Positions 1 through 8,653 of a stretch of 8,653 nt of DNA are shown one piece after another (the first letter of the stretch is position 1; each line of letters starts with the position of its first letter). Under the pieces are notes generated by a model. The model had not been told where the DNA came from. It searched no databases and was given only the letters and a program-made list of their open reading frames with translations. The position numbers were made by a program, and so were the translations under genes. The stretch comes from Paraspadella gotoi (taxonomy: Eukaryota > Animalia > Chaetognatha): NCBI GenBank assembly GCA_051294375.1, contig JBJCIZ010000069.1, positions 1-8,653 on the forward strand. Direction: 5' to 3'.

Positions 1-441
1 CGCCTCAGCGTCATCTAGGCATTGCCAAAGTCGGGTGTTATCTCTCTGCCTCTGAGACGATTCTGACGTGAGAGACGAAATGTCCAGATGGAGCCTTTCA
101 TTGGCAAGGCAAATGCCTTCTAACTGCCTAATGCTCGCTTGAGCAATATCGTCCTCGTCACAATCATCGCCGTCGCTAGAGTCAGAATCTATCGGCGGCG
201 GAGTCGGCCTATGCGCCTGAAACTGGGGTAAGGAAGACCACGTCTCGGGCGGCAGAAGCTCCTGTTCAGCGCCAGCGCCAGCGTCTCTCGATTTCGACCG
301 GGCGCGGCGCATCGTACATCTGCTAAAGTCAAGCGATCTCGAACGCGATCGCGCGCGCGGGCGGACGCTTTTCTCTGCGCCCTCTTTCTCAATCTCCGGT
401 ATCGTCGCCGCTCTGGCCGTCGGGCGGACAAGGTCACTCAT
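1..441 (-). CDS. N-terminus of a long ORF running off the window; probable Gag/ORF1 of the downstream element copy
   Basis: Manual translation gives 147 stop-free codons from ATG 441: MSDLVRPTARAATIPEIEKEGAEKSVRPRARSRSRSLDFSRCTMRRARSKSRDAGAGAEQELLPPETWSSLPQFQAHRPTPPPIDSDSSDGDDCDEDDIAQASIRQLEGICLANERLHLDISSLTSESSQRQRDNTRLWQCLDDAEA. The Gag identity is positional only. Confidence 0.6.
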   Translation of the reverse strand, partial: MSDLVRPTARAATIPEIEKEGAEKSVRPRARSRSRSLDFSRCTMRRARSKSRDAGAGAEQELLPPETWSSLPQFQAHRPTPPPIDSDSSDGDDCDEDDIAQASIRQLEGICLANERLHLDISSLTSESSQRQRDNTRLWQCLDDAEA

Positions 442-1014
442 CCTGATGACCCGACGTTGAGGGCGGGGAGAGAAAAGAGGTAGCGGTGCGCCCGGGCGAA
501 GGGGCTGCCGGCGGAAAATATCTTTGAATTTAATTGTTATTGTTAATGTTAACGTTCACGTCTGATGCGAGTTAATATTTTGTTTAATTTTGTATTTTTT
601 TGTATTTTTTTGTTAAAGAACCTCAGCCGTTTACAGTTTTACTCGTTTTATATATATTCTCAAAAAAAATTATTGCTCTTTTGTTTTTGTATCAATTTTT
701 CTCTCGATCTGTATTTTTCGACTTTTTGGCCGTTTTTCTTTTTTTCTCAGAGAGAGAAAAAATGAAGGGGGGGGGTAAGCGACTTTGCTAAACGTTTCAA
801 GAATATTCTCTCTTCCAAAGTTTTTGCGAGGATAAGAAATATTGGCGACACAGTCGTTCTCGATAAATCTTCACAACTCCGCAACTTTTGGATCGACCGA
901 AAACGGGAGAAAAATTCTTTTAGATAAAATGTTGGACGTTTGGCGTCGCAGCCTCAAACGGAGTCAGACAGAGAGAGAAAAATATTTCTTTTTTTTTTTG
1001 AGAGAGACTGTTAC

Positions 1015-1043
1015 GTTTATGTTATGTTTATGTTTATGTTTAT
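1015..1043. repeat. (TTTATG)n microsatellite, imperfect
   Basis: gtttatgttatgtttatgtttatgtttat. Confidence 0.7.
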
Positions 1044-1360
1044 ATTTTGTATTGTTGAAACGCTGTAGTTGATGCTTTAGTTTTATAGTTTTCTTCCTAA
1101 CGGATTATTTGTAAAGTGCCTTCCTAACAATTTAGATTTTAACGCTAGAGTCCATCGGTAAAAAAAAGGAGAGAGAGGAGGGAGGGGGTGAAGATTGGGG
1201 GTCGGTGGTGAAAGAGAAGAGAGAAATAATAGAGACGATGAGAGGAATTTACTGTTGACGACACTGATCAGTTAGTCTCCAGAGTATTCTAATTTAGAAA
1301 TGCATTAGTATTTGAGTTTAGTAGGAATAGTCGGCGGTTTTTTTTTTTATATTAGTTTAA

Positions 1361-1423
1361 AGTTTATGTTTTTCGCTTTAATGTTTACTGTTTTTCGTTT
1401 TTAAGTTACTGTTTTTCGCTTTA
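1361..1423. repeat. Three degenerate tandem copies of a 20-23 bp unit (core TGTTTTTCG(C/T)TTT)
   Basis: agtttatgtttttcgcttta / atgtttactgtttttcgttttta / agttactgtttttcgcttta. Confidence 0.75.
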
Positions 1424-1612
1424 TTTTTTTATTTCGGGGGTGGGGTTTGAGAAATCGACAGTTGGGAGTTTTTACGCCTATTGTTAGGGGGGGGTATCGA
1501 AAGGATTCTTCGGGCTGTTGGGGGCTGCGGGGTAACGGGCGTTCTATGTCATTCACTGGAAAGCAGGGGGAGGAGGGAAATGGGGACCTGGTCTTCTCGC
1601 TCTACGCGACTC

Positions 1613-1834
1613 TTACTTGTCCGCCTCTGTTGTTAAAGGCGTATACAGTTTCACTTGACGTCGACTTCGTCGTCGTGATTTTGTAGTCCACGTCTTCGGA
1701 GAAAAATCTGGATCGCGCTTGTAGGAGAGAGCGGCGTCTTGCGTGGCTGCGTCGTCGTCGGCGGGCGCGGTCGGAGCGGCGGTCAGCCAATGAGCAAAAA
1801 TTCGAGCGAGACGCAGGCGGTTAAATCTTTCCAT
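1613..1834 (-). CDS. Small leader ORF (73 aa), unknown function
   Basis: ATG-initiated ORF in a GC-rich island within an otherwise low-complexity leader. No recognisable motif. Confidence 0.35.
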   Translation of the reverse strand: MERFNRLRLARIFAHWLTAAPTAPADDDAATQDAALSYKRDPDFSPKTWTTKSRRRSRRQVKLYTPLTTEADK

Positions 1835-2182
1835 CGGGAAAGGCGCATAGAGATAAACGAATGAGAGAGAGAGAAAGGAGAAAAAGGGAGAAAAGTGGCG
1901 GTGGGAGAAAGAAATTTAAATTTTGAAAGTTGTAGTTCTGATTTAGTCTATTATAGAGTTTGTTGTCGTTTTGAAGTCGAAAGTTTAAAGTTAAAACAAA
2001 TGTTTTCGTCTTTCTATGATAGTGTCAGATTCCTCAGAAAATAAACGACTTTGCAGTTTTTAACGTTTGTGTAGTAAAGGGCGGGAAGCGGGGGAAGGTC
2101 AGAAGGTGAGATGAGAGATAGATGAAGGAAAGCGGCAAGACGAAAGTTCAGAAAAAGGAGGTGAGAGCGATTGTCGTCTGAC

Positions 2183-2218
2183 GAAAATTAATCCAGGGCG
2201 TAGAAAATTAGTCCAGGG
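2183..2218. repeat. Direct repeat with 20-bp period
   Basis: GAAAATTAATCCAGGG (2183-2198) and GAAAATTAGTCCAGGG (2203-2218). Confidence 0.8.
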
Positions 2219-2452
2219 TTAGTCGAGACGGCGGCGAAAATTCGAGTCAATGTCGGCGTGGGAGGGAAGGACATCGACCGAAGGGAGAAAGTGGGCGAGA
2301 CTTGGGGGCGGGGTCAAGGACCTGGTTATTTTGTTTATTCTGGGCTCTTATTTTTTTTTTGAAGTCAAGGTTAGTTGGGATTTTTTTGCCGGTAGAGGCA
2401 CAGGACTCGAAGGATGGGGTCTTATGTGGTTAAAGTTCGAGCGACGTCACAA

Positions 2453-2460
2453 GGGCGCCA
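2453..2460 (-). other. Candidate primer-binding site TGGCGCCC (tRNA-Lys-like)
   Basis: Matches the first 8 nt of known tRNA-Lys PBS sequences (TGGCGCCCGAAC / TGGCGCCCAACG). It is short and lies 27 nt from the proposed LTR end. Confidence 0.4.
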
Positions 2461-2487
2461 CTCTAACTGGTGGGCTCTGGGCCTAAC

Positions 2488-2819
2488 TGTGTCTCACGTC
2501 TAGTAGAAACCAAAAGGAATGGGAGGAGAGTAAATGTATTTCACAACTGAGGTCTAAACTCTATCCGAAAAATATAAAATGTCCAAAAAAAGGGAGAGAG
2601 AAAGAGGCGGAGAGAGAGAGAGAAGATGGACTGAACCTAAACTTGAACGCGACCCCGAATCCCCGTGAGGAGGATGAGGAGGGAGGAGGAATAGAGAGAG
2701 AAGAGGAGCTGTAGACCCGCGACGTCTACCGGCCTTCGATTCTGGGTTCAACATGCAAATTTATTTATTTTTGATCAGTTATCAAATTAATAAAATAACT
2801 CTTCTCTCGCACTTACACA
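2488..2819 (-). repeat. Candidate LTR (332 bp, TGTGT...ACACA termini)
   Basis: Starts immediately after the PPT. Termini form an inverted repeat (AACTGTGT 2485-2492 / ACACAGTT 2815-2822). Minus-strand AATAAA at ~2759-2768. No second copy in the window; the left end could lie nearer 2465. Confidence 0.5.
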
Positions 2820-2820
2820 G

Positions 2821-2831
2821 TTCCCCCTCTC
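2821..2831 (-). other. Polypurine tract (plus-strand primer)
   Basis: The minus strand reads GAGAGGGGGAA-c-TGTGTAAG: a purine run 1 nt before TG, downstream of pol in the correct orientation. Confidence 0.65.
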
Positions 2832-2965
2832 ACACATTAGGCTTATCTTAACACATTTAAGTGATCTAATCGCCATTAAGGTTAAACTTTTAGGCACAAT
2901 CATTCTCTCCGATCTTTCAATCTATATGGTAGACACCTGCGAATCGATAATGAATCACAGGAGTC

Positions 2966-3247
2966 GTGGTCGTTGTGCCAAATCGGCCCAGGTACCCCTT
3001 TACTGTGACCCTTACCCAATTCGTTGAAGAGATCGGCGAGGGTCTCACGGGTGGGCAGATTGCGGGAATCGCGGTCGGCGCCATTCTTTTTCTCGTTGTC
3101 TTCGCAGTGTTGGCGTGCATTTTCTGTCGCCGCTCTGGATGCCAAGTCCGGGCAGCGGCATTAAATGTCCGCCTCCCCTGCGTTGACGCCGAGGTCCAGG
3201 ATGCCGTCGTTTCCGGATCCTTCGAATTGCAACCTGTTGAGGCGTAA
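2966..3247 (+). CDS. Small single-pass membrane protein (~93 aa visible; true start uncertain)
   Basis: GLTGGQIAGIAVGAILFLVVFAVLACIFCRR is a typical type I/III TM helix followed by Cys and basic stop-transfer residues, in a GC-rich island. There is no in-frame ATG. The start may come via the acceptor CACAG at 2959 or, with one indel, from the ATGs at 2926/2950. Confidence 0.7.
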   Translation: MVVVPNRPRYPFTVTLTQFVEEIGEGLTGGQIAGIAVGAILFLVVFAVLACIFCRRSGCQVRAAALNVRLPCVDAEVQDAVVSGSFELQPVEA

Positions 3248-3296
3248 AACATAAAAAATTTAATATATGAACCCTTAAGCTTAACCTATATCTCTC

Positions 3297-3304
3297 TATA
3301 TAAG
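3297..3304 (+). promoter_or_regulatory. Candidate TATA box for the spliced antisense gene
   Basis: TATATAAG about 70 nt upstream of ATG 3367, between the two + strand genes. Confidence 0.35.
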
Positions 3305-3425
3305 ACAGGGCCTAGGGACCTTTAGGACCCCTTTCTATTGAACAATTGAGGAGGTATAACAATTTAATGGTAGGGAATAGGAGAGCTAAGGATCCCAACT
3401 ACTAATGATACAATAATCCACCCAG

Positions 3426-4143
3426 CTCATCATCTCTCTCGCCGAATCCGGCACACTCCCACCTTGCCGGATGAATGTTCAATGTCCGGATACAACAATC
3501 CGGGAAGAACTCCGCCAGAGCGGCATGGTATGTATCATATGAATGTTTTTTACTCCCAACTTATTTGTAGTTGTATCCTTCTCAAACCTCTCTCCCTACA
3601 GAAAGATGGACAAACGGGACACTTCTCAGTGACCGATACCCAGGGCCACATCATCATCGGGCCCTTCGAAGAGGCTCAGACGCCCGGCGCTACCTCCAAG
3701 AAGTTCGACAAAGTTCTCGAGAACTTCAAGGAGGACTACAAGCGCCAAGCCAGCATCATCGCGGGCGTCTGGGGCCTAATCGGCGCTCTGATCCTGAACA
3801 GTGAGTCCAATTATCCTAATTTCTAAAAAAATCAATATTAGTACACACACGAATTAATAGTAATTCATATGATTAGTATTAAAATAATCAATTGCATAGT
3901 CATGACCATTTTCTATTTCTCTCTTACAGCCTTGATCACCGCCCTTCGTCAATGCCTTCGGAAGAAGGATCCCGACGGCTTCTTCCGGCTGGAAAAGGTC
4001 TACTATGTGAGTATAATAATGATTGAATAACATATATTAATCAATTATACAGTGAAATTTACAAGTGGTAACCCATTCTCTAATTCGTTCTACAGCCACG
4101 GCAAAGACCCGGCACAAACGCCGTGCGCGTCTCCCACGTTTGA
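3426..4143 (+). CDS. Spliced gene for a ~126-142 aa single-pass membrane protein. Exons 3426(or ATG 3471)-3527, 3602-3800, 3930-4006, 4096-4143; possible ATG micro-exon at 3367-3369
   Basis: Donors GTATGT (3528), GTGAGT (3801) and GTGAGT (4007); pyrimidine-rich acceptors ending TACAG at 3601, 3929 and 4095. Phases 0/1/0 join into one open frame: LIISLAESGTLPPCRMNVQCPDTTIREELRQSGM|KDGQTGHFSVTDTQGHIIIGPFEEAQTPGATSKKFDKVLENFKEDYKRQASIIAGVWGLIGALILNT|LITALRQCLRKKDPDGFFRLEKVYY|PRQRPGTNAVRVSHV*. Exons are GC-rich and introns AT-rich. Confidence 0.8.
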
Positions 4144-4190
4144 ACGCCGATTAGAAAAAAACAAAAGACACGCGCAATTCATCATTTATC

Positions 4191-4196
4191 ATTAAA
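4191..4196 (+). terminator. Candidate polyadenylation signal (ATTAAA)
   Basis: Lies 47 nt after the TGA at 4141-4143, in the AT-rich gap where this gene and pol converge. Confidence 0.3.
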
Positions 4197-4406
4197 TTTC
4201 GCCAATATAATCTCATCCATTGAAATTGCATTTAATAATTATTTGTCACATTTATTTAATTAAACAAGTAAAACGATTTGGTATTTTCTCAAACAAAATA
4301 TTCAAAAAAAAAGAATCCAAATAGTCAGCAATTGCAACGAAATACAACGAAGTATCTAGTGAAAATAAGAATACAAAATTCAAAATCCCACATTTACGAT
4401 ATTGTC

Positions 4407-5959
4407 TCATTCGGCGAAAATAAGATGAATTGCATCAATAGCGATCCCTGCATTTGTAGAAGCAGAGCGGCGAGCAGCCAAACGGGTAAGAGGCGGTTCG
4501 CAGGCGGGCATGGCACGGCGGTCCAGCGTTCTCATTTTGTCAACCATTTTGATGAGGCTCTCTCTGGACAAGTTTGAACGAATAAGATGATCTCCAGGGA
4601 ATACTTTAAATTCACCAGAGACTAGAGAATGGCACTTGAATGAATTCGTTGCTATTTTGGCAACTATTTCCCACGAATCTTGATCCACTTTCCTTTGAAT
4701 TTTTCGTGGAGAACCAAGAAAAAACGAAGTCTTCTTCTTCATGACTAAATCTCCAACTTTTAGATGAGATGTAATATCTCTCGGATTTTCGCGTTTCCGG
4801 CGTTGAAGGAACCGGTTCACATCATGGCGCAAAAATGTCATTCTGAAGTCTTCTCCTTGCTTCCAATGTTTCTCTCACACTCTTTGCCGGCGCCGTCACG
4901 CCGCTAGATGGCAGTTCTCCTCCGGGTCCAACAGGTTTTGCAGATGAACGAACAAAAATGGACGTCAGAAGGACTTTTCCAGATAAAATATCTGTACAAT
5001 GTTGAATTGTAAACAACTCTAGCTTTCGCCGACGAGAGAATGAAATGGAAGATGAGGTTCATGTTCTTGTAATTTGAGCATTATTCTCGTAATGAATTGA
5101 TGAATCTCTCTACTTTAGACTGACATCTTGACACATTTGCCAATCCATGTATCAACTCCACTCCATGTTGACTAAGGATATTGGCTGAGGGAGTGTTTTG
5201 ATTTACAAAGAGCATTGTCAGCATGGATGCGACGAGGTAACCACTCCACTCTTGTCTTATCTTCATTAGACAATCCACTAACTTCCTTTGTCTTGGTAGA
5301 TTTTGTAGGATATGCCCATGCATATCTGGAGAAGAGGTCCACAGCACAAAAAATGTACGGAAATGCAGCATCATTGTGAAGGGTCCTGCAAAGTCAATTG
5401 CAACGGAGTTTCCTGGCTCCATGGGTGTCTGCATCCCTCTTCATCTCTGGAACCTTTTTGGTGATTGTTCTGAAGGCAGATTGCACAATTTCTGATGTAT
5501 GTAGAAATCTTCTCTCTCATTCCATGAATGTAGTAACTTTTTTCCCAAAGTTTTAAGGTTCAATTCACTCCAGCATGAGTTGCTGGCAGGATCACGATCC
5601 CAACAACAACATATCAAACCTTGATTGACCGCAGCAAATTTTGTTTCATGAGTCTTACTCAAAAGACGATGAAATTCCATCTCAGACACAACAAGGAGAA
5701 ACTTGATTCCTCCATCAGGGGCTGTCCACAAGCGCAGTAGCACTCCCTGATTACTGATGATGAAGAGACTGCGGTGAGAAAGGAATGCCAAAGTCCCCAT
5801 AGATAAAAGCAAAGCTTCATGTTTATCTGGAACTTCATCTTTTTCTTTCAAATAATCAATTTTTTCACTCACATCAGGCGGCTGTTGCATTTCCAAGATT
5901 TTCTGGAGAACTTTGTCTGCAAAAACTGGAACTTCCTTGGCTTTAATTGGCTCATCCAC
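4407..5959 (-). pseudogene. Integrase: HHCC zinc finger, DD(35)E core, and GPY/F-like C-terminal module
   Basis: H (HETK, 5650), H (THAGVN, 5577) and CAIC (5487-5476). D in VAIDFAGPF (5395), D in IHADNA (5219), E in SKVERF (5110). C-terminal LKVGDLVMKK...WEIVAKIATNSF. Confidence 0.92.
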
Positions 5960-6489
5960 AACTTCGTCAACTTCCTCAGTGTGGCCTGAAGCTACATCTT
6001 TATCTGAGAGTTGAACAATTGAGACTGTCCAAGGGGCAAGAAGACCTTTCCACTTCTTGATTTCACGCTTTCTGCGACGCCTTGTAACTCTACTGTGAGT
6101 AGCACCAATTGAAGAGATGGAATAGCTCCTTTGTCTAATTCCTTCTCTATTAGACTGTCCGGATCCCAGTCATCTGATGAACACTCTACTTTGTCACCGA
6201 CTGCCGACGGAGGGTGTGCCGGATCAGTGGAATCATTTGCCGGAAAATGCGTCCACTCAGTGTCATCCATATCCGGAGTCGGGTCCCGGCTGACATTTCA
6301 ATGTGGGAGACTATTAAGCTTAGACATAGTAGTCCTCTTCTTGCTTTAAAAATTGAACACAATTCATCTGAAATACTTTTATTCAGAAGTGATTCAAGCG
6401 AACTTTTTCTCGCTTTACCATTCAGAATCCTGCCTTGGAGAAACCTTTCTGTCATAAGTAGCCATCTCCTCCATCATTTTCTTCCCATC

Positions 6490-6895
6490 TGCTCACACAA
6501 TCAGCTGGAATTTGCTTAGAGTTCAATAAAAAGAATCTTGAAGTCAAAACTCTGAAGATAAGATAGATTCTTTTCAAAAATGCATCAATCGACTTTGTCC
6601 AGGTTAGCCCATCTTCTGCAACACTTGACTATCAGTGATTATGTAGAATGGTCCGCAGTGAAAGATAGCTAAATCTTTGAACTGTTTCATATAAGAGCCA
6701 AAAACTCTTTATAAAACGTTGGCAAACTTCTTTTTGCTGGAACCAAAGTCTTTGAATAACATTGGACAATGTAGAGTTGCCCTCTTGTCTCTATCAGCGC
6801 CAGCTGCAATCTCTGCTGAAGTTGGAAAAAGCTTTTGCATAATCACAGATCCAATGGCATGCTGAGAGCCATCTGTGAGCACAATCAGCTCATCT
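6490..6895 (-). pseudogene. RNase H domain, Ty3/Gypsy type (frameshifted)
   Basis: LIVLTDGSQHAIGSVIMQ, then PFYIITDSQ (~6652-6626), then IPADCVSR (~6512-6489, equivalent to NxxADALSR). Confidence 0.9.
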
Positions 6896-7019
6896 TCAAG
6901 CTTGGTTGAGGGAACTCTCACCCTCCCAAGTTTTTCATCCAGAAGTACACTTTTTTGCTTTTTCAAATGCTGTTTTGTGATTTCAGTGACTTGAACTTTG
7001 GTCTTTCCTTTTGCTAAAT

Positions 7020-7880
7020 CACGCAATGGCCCAAGTGCTTCACTCAGCTTAGGGTTGCAAGCTAGGAACCAAGAGAAAAAAGCAAGGCTTAGAAATAAGG
7101 TCCTTCCTTGAGTCAGGAAAGGTGAGTTTTAGCAATCTTCTCAATCTTCTCCCCTGACATTCCTTTTGCTCCTTCTGAGACTTCATGCCCGAGAATCCTC
7201 AGTTTGTCCACCCCAATGTCACTCTCTTGGCAGACAAAAAGCAGGTGTATAGGTTGAGCAAATAGCTATGGTCAGAGGTAGATCTGCATCCAGATGTTGC
7301 TTCATGTTCTTGGAGTAGGTAGATGTGGTCATCAATGAAGGGCTTGCATCTTTTTGTGAATGTCAAAACATTCTCGACACCCATTGTTGAGCATACCAGG
7401 ACCAACACTGATCCCCATTGGACATCTGAGGTATCTGAAGAACTTTCCCAGAACAAAGAATCCAGTGAACTTTTTAGATGAATCTTCATCCATCAACAGT
7501 TGATGATAGAATCCGGCAGCATCCAAGTTGGAGAAAAATTGTGTAATCACCACTGGCAATTTCCCTCCTGAACTCTTCCATTTCGGTAGTGGGAAGTGAT
7601 GAGGCATCAGAGCTTGATTCATTTTTCTGTAATCAACGCACATTCGCTCTTGGTGACCTCTCTCTTCTCTGTACAACATATCTGCTCTCCAGAATAATGT
7701 GGATGTTTGACAGCCCAACTATCATCTGAATTTGTCATCTCAGTAATGACTCCTTGTTTGAGAAGCTTGTCAATATGCTGCTTGATAAAGGGAATCTTTG
7801 CGTCAGAGTGTTTTCTCACTTTGTCTTTCATGGGAATGTCTGTTGAAGATTTGAGTTTGATTGGATTCATCCTCACTCCA
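7020..7880 (-). pseudogene. Reverse transcriptase domain (frameshifted)
   Basis: IDKLLKQGVI, RMCVDYRKMNQ...HFPLP, FFSNLDAAGFYHQL, YLRCPMGISVGP, catalytic FIDD (7339-7328), ILGHEVSEG (~7196-7170) and thumb LSEALGPLRDL. Confidence 0.95.
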
Positions 7881-7899
7881 GTGAAAGTTTCAGGTTTTT

Positions 7900-8653
7900 C
7901 TTCATTGTAAAAAGATTAGACTGAAAGACCCAGACCAAAGATCTGACTTCTCCTGATCACTGTCACTAAGATGAGATATTTTGAACTGCTTCAGAAATGC
8001 TTCTTTGTCCTCCCAATTAGTGCAAGTTGCTCCTTTTTGTCTCTCTTTTTCCACATCAACATCAATCTTCAAGAAATCATCTTTCACGAGATTTGCCTTA
8101 CTTGATAGATCAAAATTGACTCCACGACTATGCATGTCAGTTAGCATGTCAGATGACATGTTTGTTTTCCCCTCCATGGAAGAAAATGGAACAGCTTGAT
8201 TTTTCTCATTGACATAAGAAACAGAGATTTCATCTTGAAGTTCAGTCAACTCCTCACCAGAGACTATGTGAAATACAGTAGACTCTGAATCCAAAGGCTC
8301 GTTTTTCTTCATGTTGAACAACCTCACCAAAATTTTTCCTTTCTTCGCAGAACAATTTCTTCTTTTGTTCATTGATAACTGGAATTTTGTAAGTCCTTGA
8401 CTTTCCACAAAACTGATACCGCGGAATCATCATTTTGTCAGTAGGCTCATCATAGAATGATAGAAATGAATGCTTTCCTTGTTGGTTTCCGGTTTTGTAA
8501 GCATTCCACCCATGTGATGCTTCTTGGATGAATGTTGTTTCCTGGTACAACGCATGAGTGTAGAACGCCTGAATCTCCACGTAGACGAGAATCTCGTTAA
8601 AAAAAGATTCAACATTTTTCTTATAGAATTTCGTTCAAAGATCTGACTACCCA
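7900..8653 (-). pseudogene. End of the protease region and protease-RT linker of pol
   Basis: The window edge reads xGSQIF, a weak match to the protease C-terminal ILGxDF motif. YKIPVINE...(KGK/N)FGEV and SHLSDSDQEK resemble Gypsy PR-RT linkers. The catalytic DTG motif is not in the window. Confidence 0.5.

Follow-up and report, generated by a model that had tools for sequence, protein, structure and literature searches.

The window, i.e., the whole 8,653-nt stretch of DNA that was analyzed, holds the 3′ part of a Ty3/Gypsy LTR retrotransposon that runs on the minus strand; the window ends inside pol. Between the stop of the integrase C-terminal frame at 4407 (minus strand) and the polypurine tract (PPT) and LTR (2831/2819) are two plus-strand genes, antisense to pol, which we term the cassette. 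The features, with the evidence for each, are the following:

Positions 2453–2460, minus strand: possible primer-binding site beyond the LTR and outside the cassette, an 8-nt motif starting with TGG at the point where other contigs diverge (2461).
Positions 2488–2819, minus strand: LTR, the element's 3′ LTR (TG...CA, 332 nt), placed by the preceding purine run, an inverted repeat and contig depth.
Positions 2821–2831, minus strand: PPT, with C-TGT next to it.
Positions 2926–3247, plus strand: antisense gene 1, for a predicted small single-pass membrane protein; open frame 2954–3247, 97 aa.
Positions 3297–3302, plus strand: TATA-like box upstream of gene 2, a putative internal promoter; the sole TATA[AT]A match in 2801–4406.
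Positions 3471–3527, plus strand: gene 2 exon 1, with an ATG at 3471; joined in run X7 across a 74-nt intron.
Positions 3602–3800, plus strand: gene 2 exon 2, with an amphipathic stretch and most of the transmembrane segment (TM); X7 joint from 3800 to 3930, GT..AG.
Positions 3930–4006, plus strand: gene 2 exon 3, with the end of the TM and a basic patch; X7 joint from 4006 to 4096, GT..AG.
Positions 4096–4143, plus strand: gene 2 exon 4 with the stop; supported by the frame and by diverged X4 and X6 contigs that bridge to pol.
Positions 4407–8533, minus strand: pol (the region after the protease, RT, RNase H and integrase); supported by a sub-threshold RVT_1 match of a fragment, tblastn of 10 clade proteins and indels in contigs.

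The affinity with Ty3/Gypsy elements (Metaviridae) is apparent from both pol and the terminal features. The best single-stretch match of the window pol in a HMMER search of 1.84 billion representatives is P0003 (42%, E 6e-19), a 1759-aa protein that has the Pfam domain order protease–RT–RNase H–integrase and is collinear with window positions 4428–8472 at 32–44%; the characteristic domain order is thus seen via P0003, the protease itself being outside the window, and the PPT is followed by a TG...CA LTR. The RT fragment has a weak RVT_1 match in Pfam, under the cut-off, and retrieved nothing from a word-based protein search, and a PDB search with 7905–8426 found no significant match; Rfam over 1–4500 gave a single match at chance level. 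The window pol copy is frameshifted at many places, and at 9 listed sites between 5196 and 6692 the contigs of all four runs are one base off from it, which indicates that this copy is decayed or mis-polished. At 8581–8627, loose contig ends and a depth jump suggest that pol is broken, or carries a high-copy insertion, just ahead of the protease.

Four purine runs of at least 10 nt occur on the pol strand from 4410 to 2810, and C-TGT follows only the one at 2831–2821; this bears out a preliminary description of the locus, which had put the PPT at 2831 and seen no PPT or LTR ahead of the cassette. An 8-nt perfect inverted repeat (2485–2492/2815–2822) marks the LTR ends: the LTR start after the PPT pairs with 2485–2492, and hence the LTR spans 2488–2819. 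Contig depth within it (2640–2769) is far greater than over the cassette. Based on loose contig ends, the far boundary could instead be at 2461, directly beyond which stands the motif at 2453–2460, which we take to resemble a tRNA-Lys primer-binding site. Within 2461–2744 the LTR core, with a GA microsatellite and a short hairpin near 2715–2740, is much deeper in contigs than the first 75 nt of the LTR; many contigs exit the LTR at 2744/2745 into differing sequence, one variant substitutes 2489–2584, and the core is likely common to several subfamilies or solo LTRs. Past the LTR, 1–2460 is covered less deeply by contigs than pol and includes low-complexity, strand-skewed DNA over about 2 kb; it features a minus-strand frame with an ATG near 440 that is open to the window start and has no Pfam match. 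This region may be host flank, or it may belong to a second element that uses the LTR as well, in which case it would hold that element's leader and the start of its gag.

Using P0003 as query retrieved 43 proteins, of which 10 (P0003 and P0165–P0173) score at least 582 bits as against at most 110 bits for the other 33. In a quick tree, which carries a long-branch warning and from which 3 of 49 rows were dropped for short match, the window and these 10 are set apart from the rest by a branch with an SH-aLRT of 100, on a stem of 1.63; within this set, P0003 and P0165–P0167 cluster with the window, and P0170 falls in the other half of the clade. Thus, by sequence, the window pol belongs to a deep-branching, long-stemmed Gypsy clade. 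There is no named member among its 10 representatives, and the names in their clusters amount to one integrase labeled as from a bacterial MAG and four "hypothetical protein" rows. The former, P0235 in the cluster of P0167, is a eukaryote-type Gypsy clade member whose label probably reflects binning contamination. In the pol proteins of the clade (window 4407–8533, P0003, P0165–P0173), a long insert separates the protease from RT, and the linker that connects RNase H to integrase is long and variable.

In env-bearing Gypsy elements, such as the errantiviruses, a large sense env follows pol. Here the longest stop-to-stop frame on the pol strand in 2832–4406 is 122 aa and devoid of a TM; hence, there is no sense env in this interval, as had been claimed for it earlier.

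The exons of gene 2 were modeled from splice signals alone. The product is 126 aa, with no internal stop across the four exons, and the three introns (74, 129 and 89 nt) are all GT..AG with a GC content of 26–35%. Six of the 11 listed sequencing runs (X1, X2, X4, X6, X7 and X9) were compared with the window: all three predicted introns are spliced in X7 and none in the five DNA runs (X1, X2, X4, X6, X9), X7 being RNA by our guess, with no listed run on record as RNA. The GT..AG polarity assigns the gene 2 transcript to the plus strand, opposite to pol. X7 also has joints from 3527 to 3608 and from 4006 to 4099; these two come with a few differing letters and suggest that another, diverged copy of gene 2 is spliced as well. 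Separately, the depth of X1 and X2 over 3995–4134 (end of exon 3, intron 3 and exon 4) is well above that of the rest of the cassette, and loose contig ends occur at 3995 in X2, X7 and X9; the genome probably also contains relatives of gene 2 that are more diverged.

The predicted TM of gene 2 (aa 71–91) has about 70 residues on its N-terminal side and is flanked on both sides by amphipathic stretches (hydrophobic moment 0.71 at aa 51–61); it is followed by five K/R in 15 aa, and there is one membrane-proximal Cys. The earlier designation of gene 2 as a membrane protein thus holds insofar as one TM is predicted, with the qualification that this segment is merely moderately hydrophobic (2.03). 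Among the differences listed between copies, 4 of 8 are synonymous (p 0.09, not significant) and one is stop-to-stop. A word-based protein search with one unspliced frame found no homologue.

Gene 1, whose start is some 95 nt away from the PPT, has a markedly hydrophobic predicted TM at aa 36–58 of the open frame (nt 3059–3127; 19-residue hydropathy 3.13), preceded by an ectodomain of 35 residues in the open frame, and more with its start, and followed by four K/R in 15 aa; cysteines are found at 55, 58 and 63. A helix spans 33–61 in one of two predicted structure models, both of low confidence (pLDDT 54 and 61). The window copy is broken near 2959, where the contigs of 4/4 runs have a short indel, and lacks an in-frame ATG, the ATGs at 2926 and 2950 being in another frame. 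Hence, of the preliminary claim of two antisense genes for single-pass membrane proteins, both frames and both TMs are recovered, but one of the genes is broken and without an in-frame ATG in the window. As gene 1 is intron-less, its coverage in X7 does not establish transcription. The protein P0110 has a tblastn match to 2918–3148 (E 0.002). Among the differences listed, 9 of 13 are synonymous (p 0.0015–0.005) and the remaining four are conservative (BLOSUM +1 to +3), a pattern suggestive of coding constraint on gene 1 among the copies.

In block shuffles of the region, a frame of at least 95 aa with a TM of at least 3.0 was seen in 0 of 1000, and with the TM threshold at 1.9 in 36 of 1000. 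The GC3 of both cassette genes is 0.61–0.71, as against 0.36–0.43 in the pol fragments. Pfam and PHROGs returned only TM-type matches, all sub-threshold, including a weak Pfam match to influenza NB (E 1e-4, below the cut-off).

Several contigs bear on whether the cassette travels with the element. A contig over 4066–4479, recovered in X4 and X6 with 18–19 substitutions and 27–28 gap letters, bridges gene 2 exon 4 and pol, and an X4 contig over 2762–2960 with 13 substitutions bridges the LTR/PPT and gene 1. These bridging contigs are about a tenth off from the window, and the same runs also contain contigs that match the window exactly and a version that is about 81% similar to it (3554–3688), i.e., more versions than two alleles would yield, with the proviso that the samples may be pooled. 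As diverged contigs bridge the cassette to both pol and the LTR, the cassette is, with high confidence, element-borne. Contig depth, which is a hint only and neither copy number nor expression level, is greater over pol than over the cassette in X1, X2, X4 and X9; given this excess, the loose ends at 3995 and an X4 contig that joins 2784 to 3995, there are likely subfamilies with diverged or shorter cassettes.

Locus scans of viral contigs, genome contigs and a first set of metagenomes uncovered no relatives. An alignment of the 10 clade proteins yielded, among the 587 metagenome pattern matches listed, one clade locus with DNA downstream of pol, L001. Its pol is 99% identical to P0170, of the clade half other than that of the window, and is about 27–30% identical to the window pol, with about 26–29% over the RT and integrase core and 42% in the C-terminal part. 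Its pol stop is at 3504, and an antisense ATG-initiated ORF of 138 aa (3689–4105) ends 185 nt beyond that stop; one such ORF is present within 1.4 kb, as against two genes in the window. The predicted protein has one TM (aa 40–58) with a C-x-x-C at its end, as in gene 1, a 39-residue ectodomain with an N-glycosylation site before the TM, an amphipathic helix after it, and two K/R in the first 15 aa past the TM (five in 30). An antisense ORF with a TM like this one arose in 3 of 1000 shuffles; the pattern C-x-x-C-x-[RK] arose in 0 of 1000, though this pattern was picked after seeing both proteins and is not independent. The identical protein occurs in the protein collection, where its cluster has 67 members, and all 15 listed are full length (137–138 aa). 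It shows no significant homology to gene 1 (BLAST E 0.22, HHalign probability 1.4%) nor significant similarity to gene 2 exon 2, and has an Atlas match to M2 (0.84), which is a lead only. Thus, position, orientation and protein type recur in the one relative with downstream DNA (1/1), and the sequences share no significant similarity. Together with the diverged bridging contigs and the antisense splicing, this antisense single-TM ORF upholds the earlier proposal of an element-borne module. In the contigs of the runs compared, nothing that the preliminary description had named as contrary evidence came to light: neither single-copy syntenic orthologues away from a pol, nor copies of this pol in which a PPT/LTR directly follows integrase. 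L001 also has two candidate PPTs upstream of its antisense ORF, the purine runs at 4119–4128 and 4296–4311; neither run leads directly into a TG.

As to function, we tentatively favor, while giving it somewhat less than an even chance, an explanation by analogy: that the gene 1 and gene 2 proteins might take the place of env in targeting membranes and in transfer between cells, comparably to the FAST and sORF2 proteins. The preliminary description had likewise proposed cell-to-cell spread or modulation of host membranes, a reading that derives from the anatomy. They would stand in for env by tying the particles of the element to membranes and could help these particles pass between neighboring cells, as FAST/sORF2 proteins do. 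In standard reverse transcription the packaged RNA is the other strand, so the introns of an antisense gene are kept; the introns of gene 2 would accordingly survive reverse transcription because the packaged RNA is complementary to the strand that carries them. Genes on the antisense strand would have to use promoters different from the one for sense LTR transcription; the likely sources are the 3′ LTR end for gene 1 and a separate TATA promoter for gene 2, and such separate antisense promoters would uncouple cassette expression from that of gag-pol. The topology is likely N-out/C-in without a signal peptide, and the juxtamembrane cysteines could be palmitoylated. In favor of this reading we count the splicing of gene 2, the linkage of the cassette to pol and LTR, the synonymous-rich variation of gene 1, the recurrence in L001 and the FAST-like anatomy. 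Against it stand the generic nature of short TM proteins with basic tails, the missing myristoylation motif and cysteine noose, the long N-terminal side of gene 2, the few K/R after the L001 TM, the sense orientation of every insect sORF2 candidate, the lack of significant homology between the window and L001 ORFs, the single ORF of L001 as against two genes, and the non-significant synonymous share in gene 2. A broader version, which we regard as possible though doubtful, is that an undescribed deep-branching Gypsy lineage has swapped env clade-wide for an antisense fusogenic or transfer module with its own promoters and introns; this would constitute a FAST-like route separate from that of insect sORF2, in which spliced genes survive reverse transcription on the opposite strand.

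The same evidence for an element-borne module applies if the proteins are instead intracellular accessories of the viroporin, Vpu or NB/M2 type, which counter a restriction factor, steer assembly or block related elements. We consider this possible, if on the unlikely side. It would accommodate the weak NB match and the M2 lead, the lack of a myristoylation motif and the long N-terminal side of gene 2, and the inferred separate antisense promoters would fit expression while gag-pol is off. However, the NB and M2 matches are sub-threshold and driven by TM composition, and the env position, short ectodomain, cysteines and basic patch suit a FAST-type protein too. Less probable, and in our view rather unlikely, is that host membrane-protein genes were captured, or left by a nested insertion, and are carried passively, the ORF of L001 being an independent capture or a coincidence. 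The introns of gene 2 are indeed ordinary spliceosomal ones, the GC3 of the cassette departs from that of pol, the window and L001 ORFs lack homology, and the cassette seemingly varies among subfamilies (the X4 joint from 2784 to 3995). Yet the word-based search with one unspliced frame found no homologue of gene 2; the copies of gene 1 appear to be constrained as coding sequence; the two halves of the clade agree in position, orientation and protein type; and, in the available text on such events, RNA-mediated capture normally strips introns and is usually in the sense orientation (PMC7264820).

That the antisense transcript acts mainly as RNA, in self-silencing or copy-number control, with the proteins being incidental, strikes us as improbable. 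Antisense non-coding transcripts are known from micropia and are discussed as regulators in the available part of the source (PMC7264820), which provides a precedent for such a role. Against it, one 126-aa frame is maintained across three introns, gene 1 has a synonymous excess, the L001-type frame is open in 15/15 listed proteins and the cassette genes do not overlap pol. Finally, it is very unlikely that the real gene is the overlapping 122-aa pol-strand frame at 2917–3285, with gene 1 as its shadow: this frame is open in the window with an ATG and has its third codon positions in common with gene 1, so that 7 of its 13 listed differences are synonymous (p 0.02–0.05), but its six replacements are radical (BLOSUM 0 to −3) as against the four conservative ones in the plus frame, its hydropathy is 0.58 with no TM, and the sense frame that overlaps the antisense ORF of L001 is in a different register and absent from the protein collection.

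The FAST/sORF2-like role that we favor can be set beside the known systems, for which we draw on the available portions of the cited sources. FAST and sORF2 proteins are described there as 63–200 aa, with one TM, a short ectodomain, a basic patch, an amphipathic helix and membrane-proximal cysteines (10.1101/2025.03.14.642691; PMC12945298). By hydropathy scans, the cassette products fall within this size range with a single TM and no signal peptide, the N-terminus of gene 1 being out of frame. As against at least three K/R in the 15 aa after the TM in sORF2/FAST, gene 1 has four, gene 2 five and the L001 ORF two; as against an ectodomain of about 30 residues, they have at least 35, about 70 and 39, respectively. 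The C-x-x-C at the TM end of gene 1 and the L001 ORF is, by prediction, like the membrane-proximal cysteines of p10-type FAST proteins, whereas neither the gene 1 frame nor the L001 ORF has the ectodomain cysteine pair of the p10-type noose. An N-terminal MGxxxS/T is absent from gene 2 and the L001 ORF, and the gene 1 frame in the window has no start. A likeness is seen to sORF2 of the Drosophila MDG1 group, as far as its available description goes: an env-less LTR element with a single-TM protein of about 100–140 aa, a basic patch and an amphipathic helix. In the source, all 105 insect sORF2 candidates, picked by the myristoylation motif, are sense-strand, and some lepidopteran ones are downstream of pol (10.1101/2025.03.14.642691), whereas the cassette is antisense and has two genes, one of them spliced.

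The layout as such, termed aORF-3R and typified by Grande, Retand and Boty, is shared by the cassette. Antisense ORFs between pol and the 3′ LTR are documented in the accessible literature on the plant Retand/Grande elements (PMC11963269; PMC7264820) and Botrytis Boty (PMC7264820). Like the cassette, the Retand/Grande ORFs are in Gypsy elements, between pol and the PPT, have their own promoter and are kept across copies. They are found in plants and are of a nuclear or DNA-binding type (TRP28, SMC), with no introns mentioned in the available text, whereas the cassette has two predicted membrane proteins, one gene with three introns and a clade unrelated to Retand/Grande; no Pfam match to TRP28 was found in the gene 1 frame, gene 2 exon 2 or the L001 ORF. 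The brtn gene of Boty/BcGypsy1, credited to Zhao 2011, is reported to contain introns. Compared by description, brtn of Botrytis cinerea is one gene, with no membrane role stated in the available text (PMC7264820; PMC8365987). The rotifer Vesta ORF3 (PMC5408684) and the Oikopleura Tor env (PMC4402516) resemble the cassette as extra post-pol membrane-protein ORFs with a partly internal promoter. As described, however, the rotifer ORF3s are 210–230 aa, with two TMs and an RXXR site in Vesta4 (PMC5408684), the Tor env is a large cleaved glycoprotein (PMC4402516), and the available text describes neither as antisense (PMC5408684; PMC4402516). HBZ of HTLV-1 is likewise accessory and antisense, with expression from the 3′ LTR, but HTLV-1 is, in the parts consulted, a retrovirus with an env, and HBZ is nuclear (PMC11963269; PMC7264820).

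In the literature searched, i.e., aside from subscription journals and Repbase, we found no antisense small membrane-protein genes in Gypsy elements; in the sense orientation, small-TM ORFs have been described from insects and rotifers in the available accounts (10.1101/2025.03.14.642691; PMC5408684). The arrangement, which the preliminary description had called unfamiliar, is therefore already known as an antisense-ORF layout from plants and Botrytis, and it is the predicted membrane-protein cargo that is unusual. An antisense, intron-bearing cassette at the env position would escape both sORF2-type screens and ordinary ORF-based TE annotation, and here it marks a Gypsy clade without a named member among its 10 representatives. 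The work on sORF2 has newly reopened the question of how env-less retrotransposons reach new cells and germ lines, and the cassette offers a concrete, testable membrane hypothesis for the antisense ORFs of Gypsy elements.
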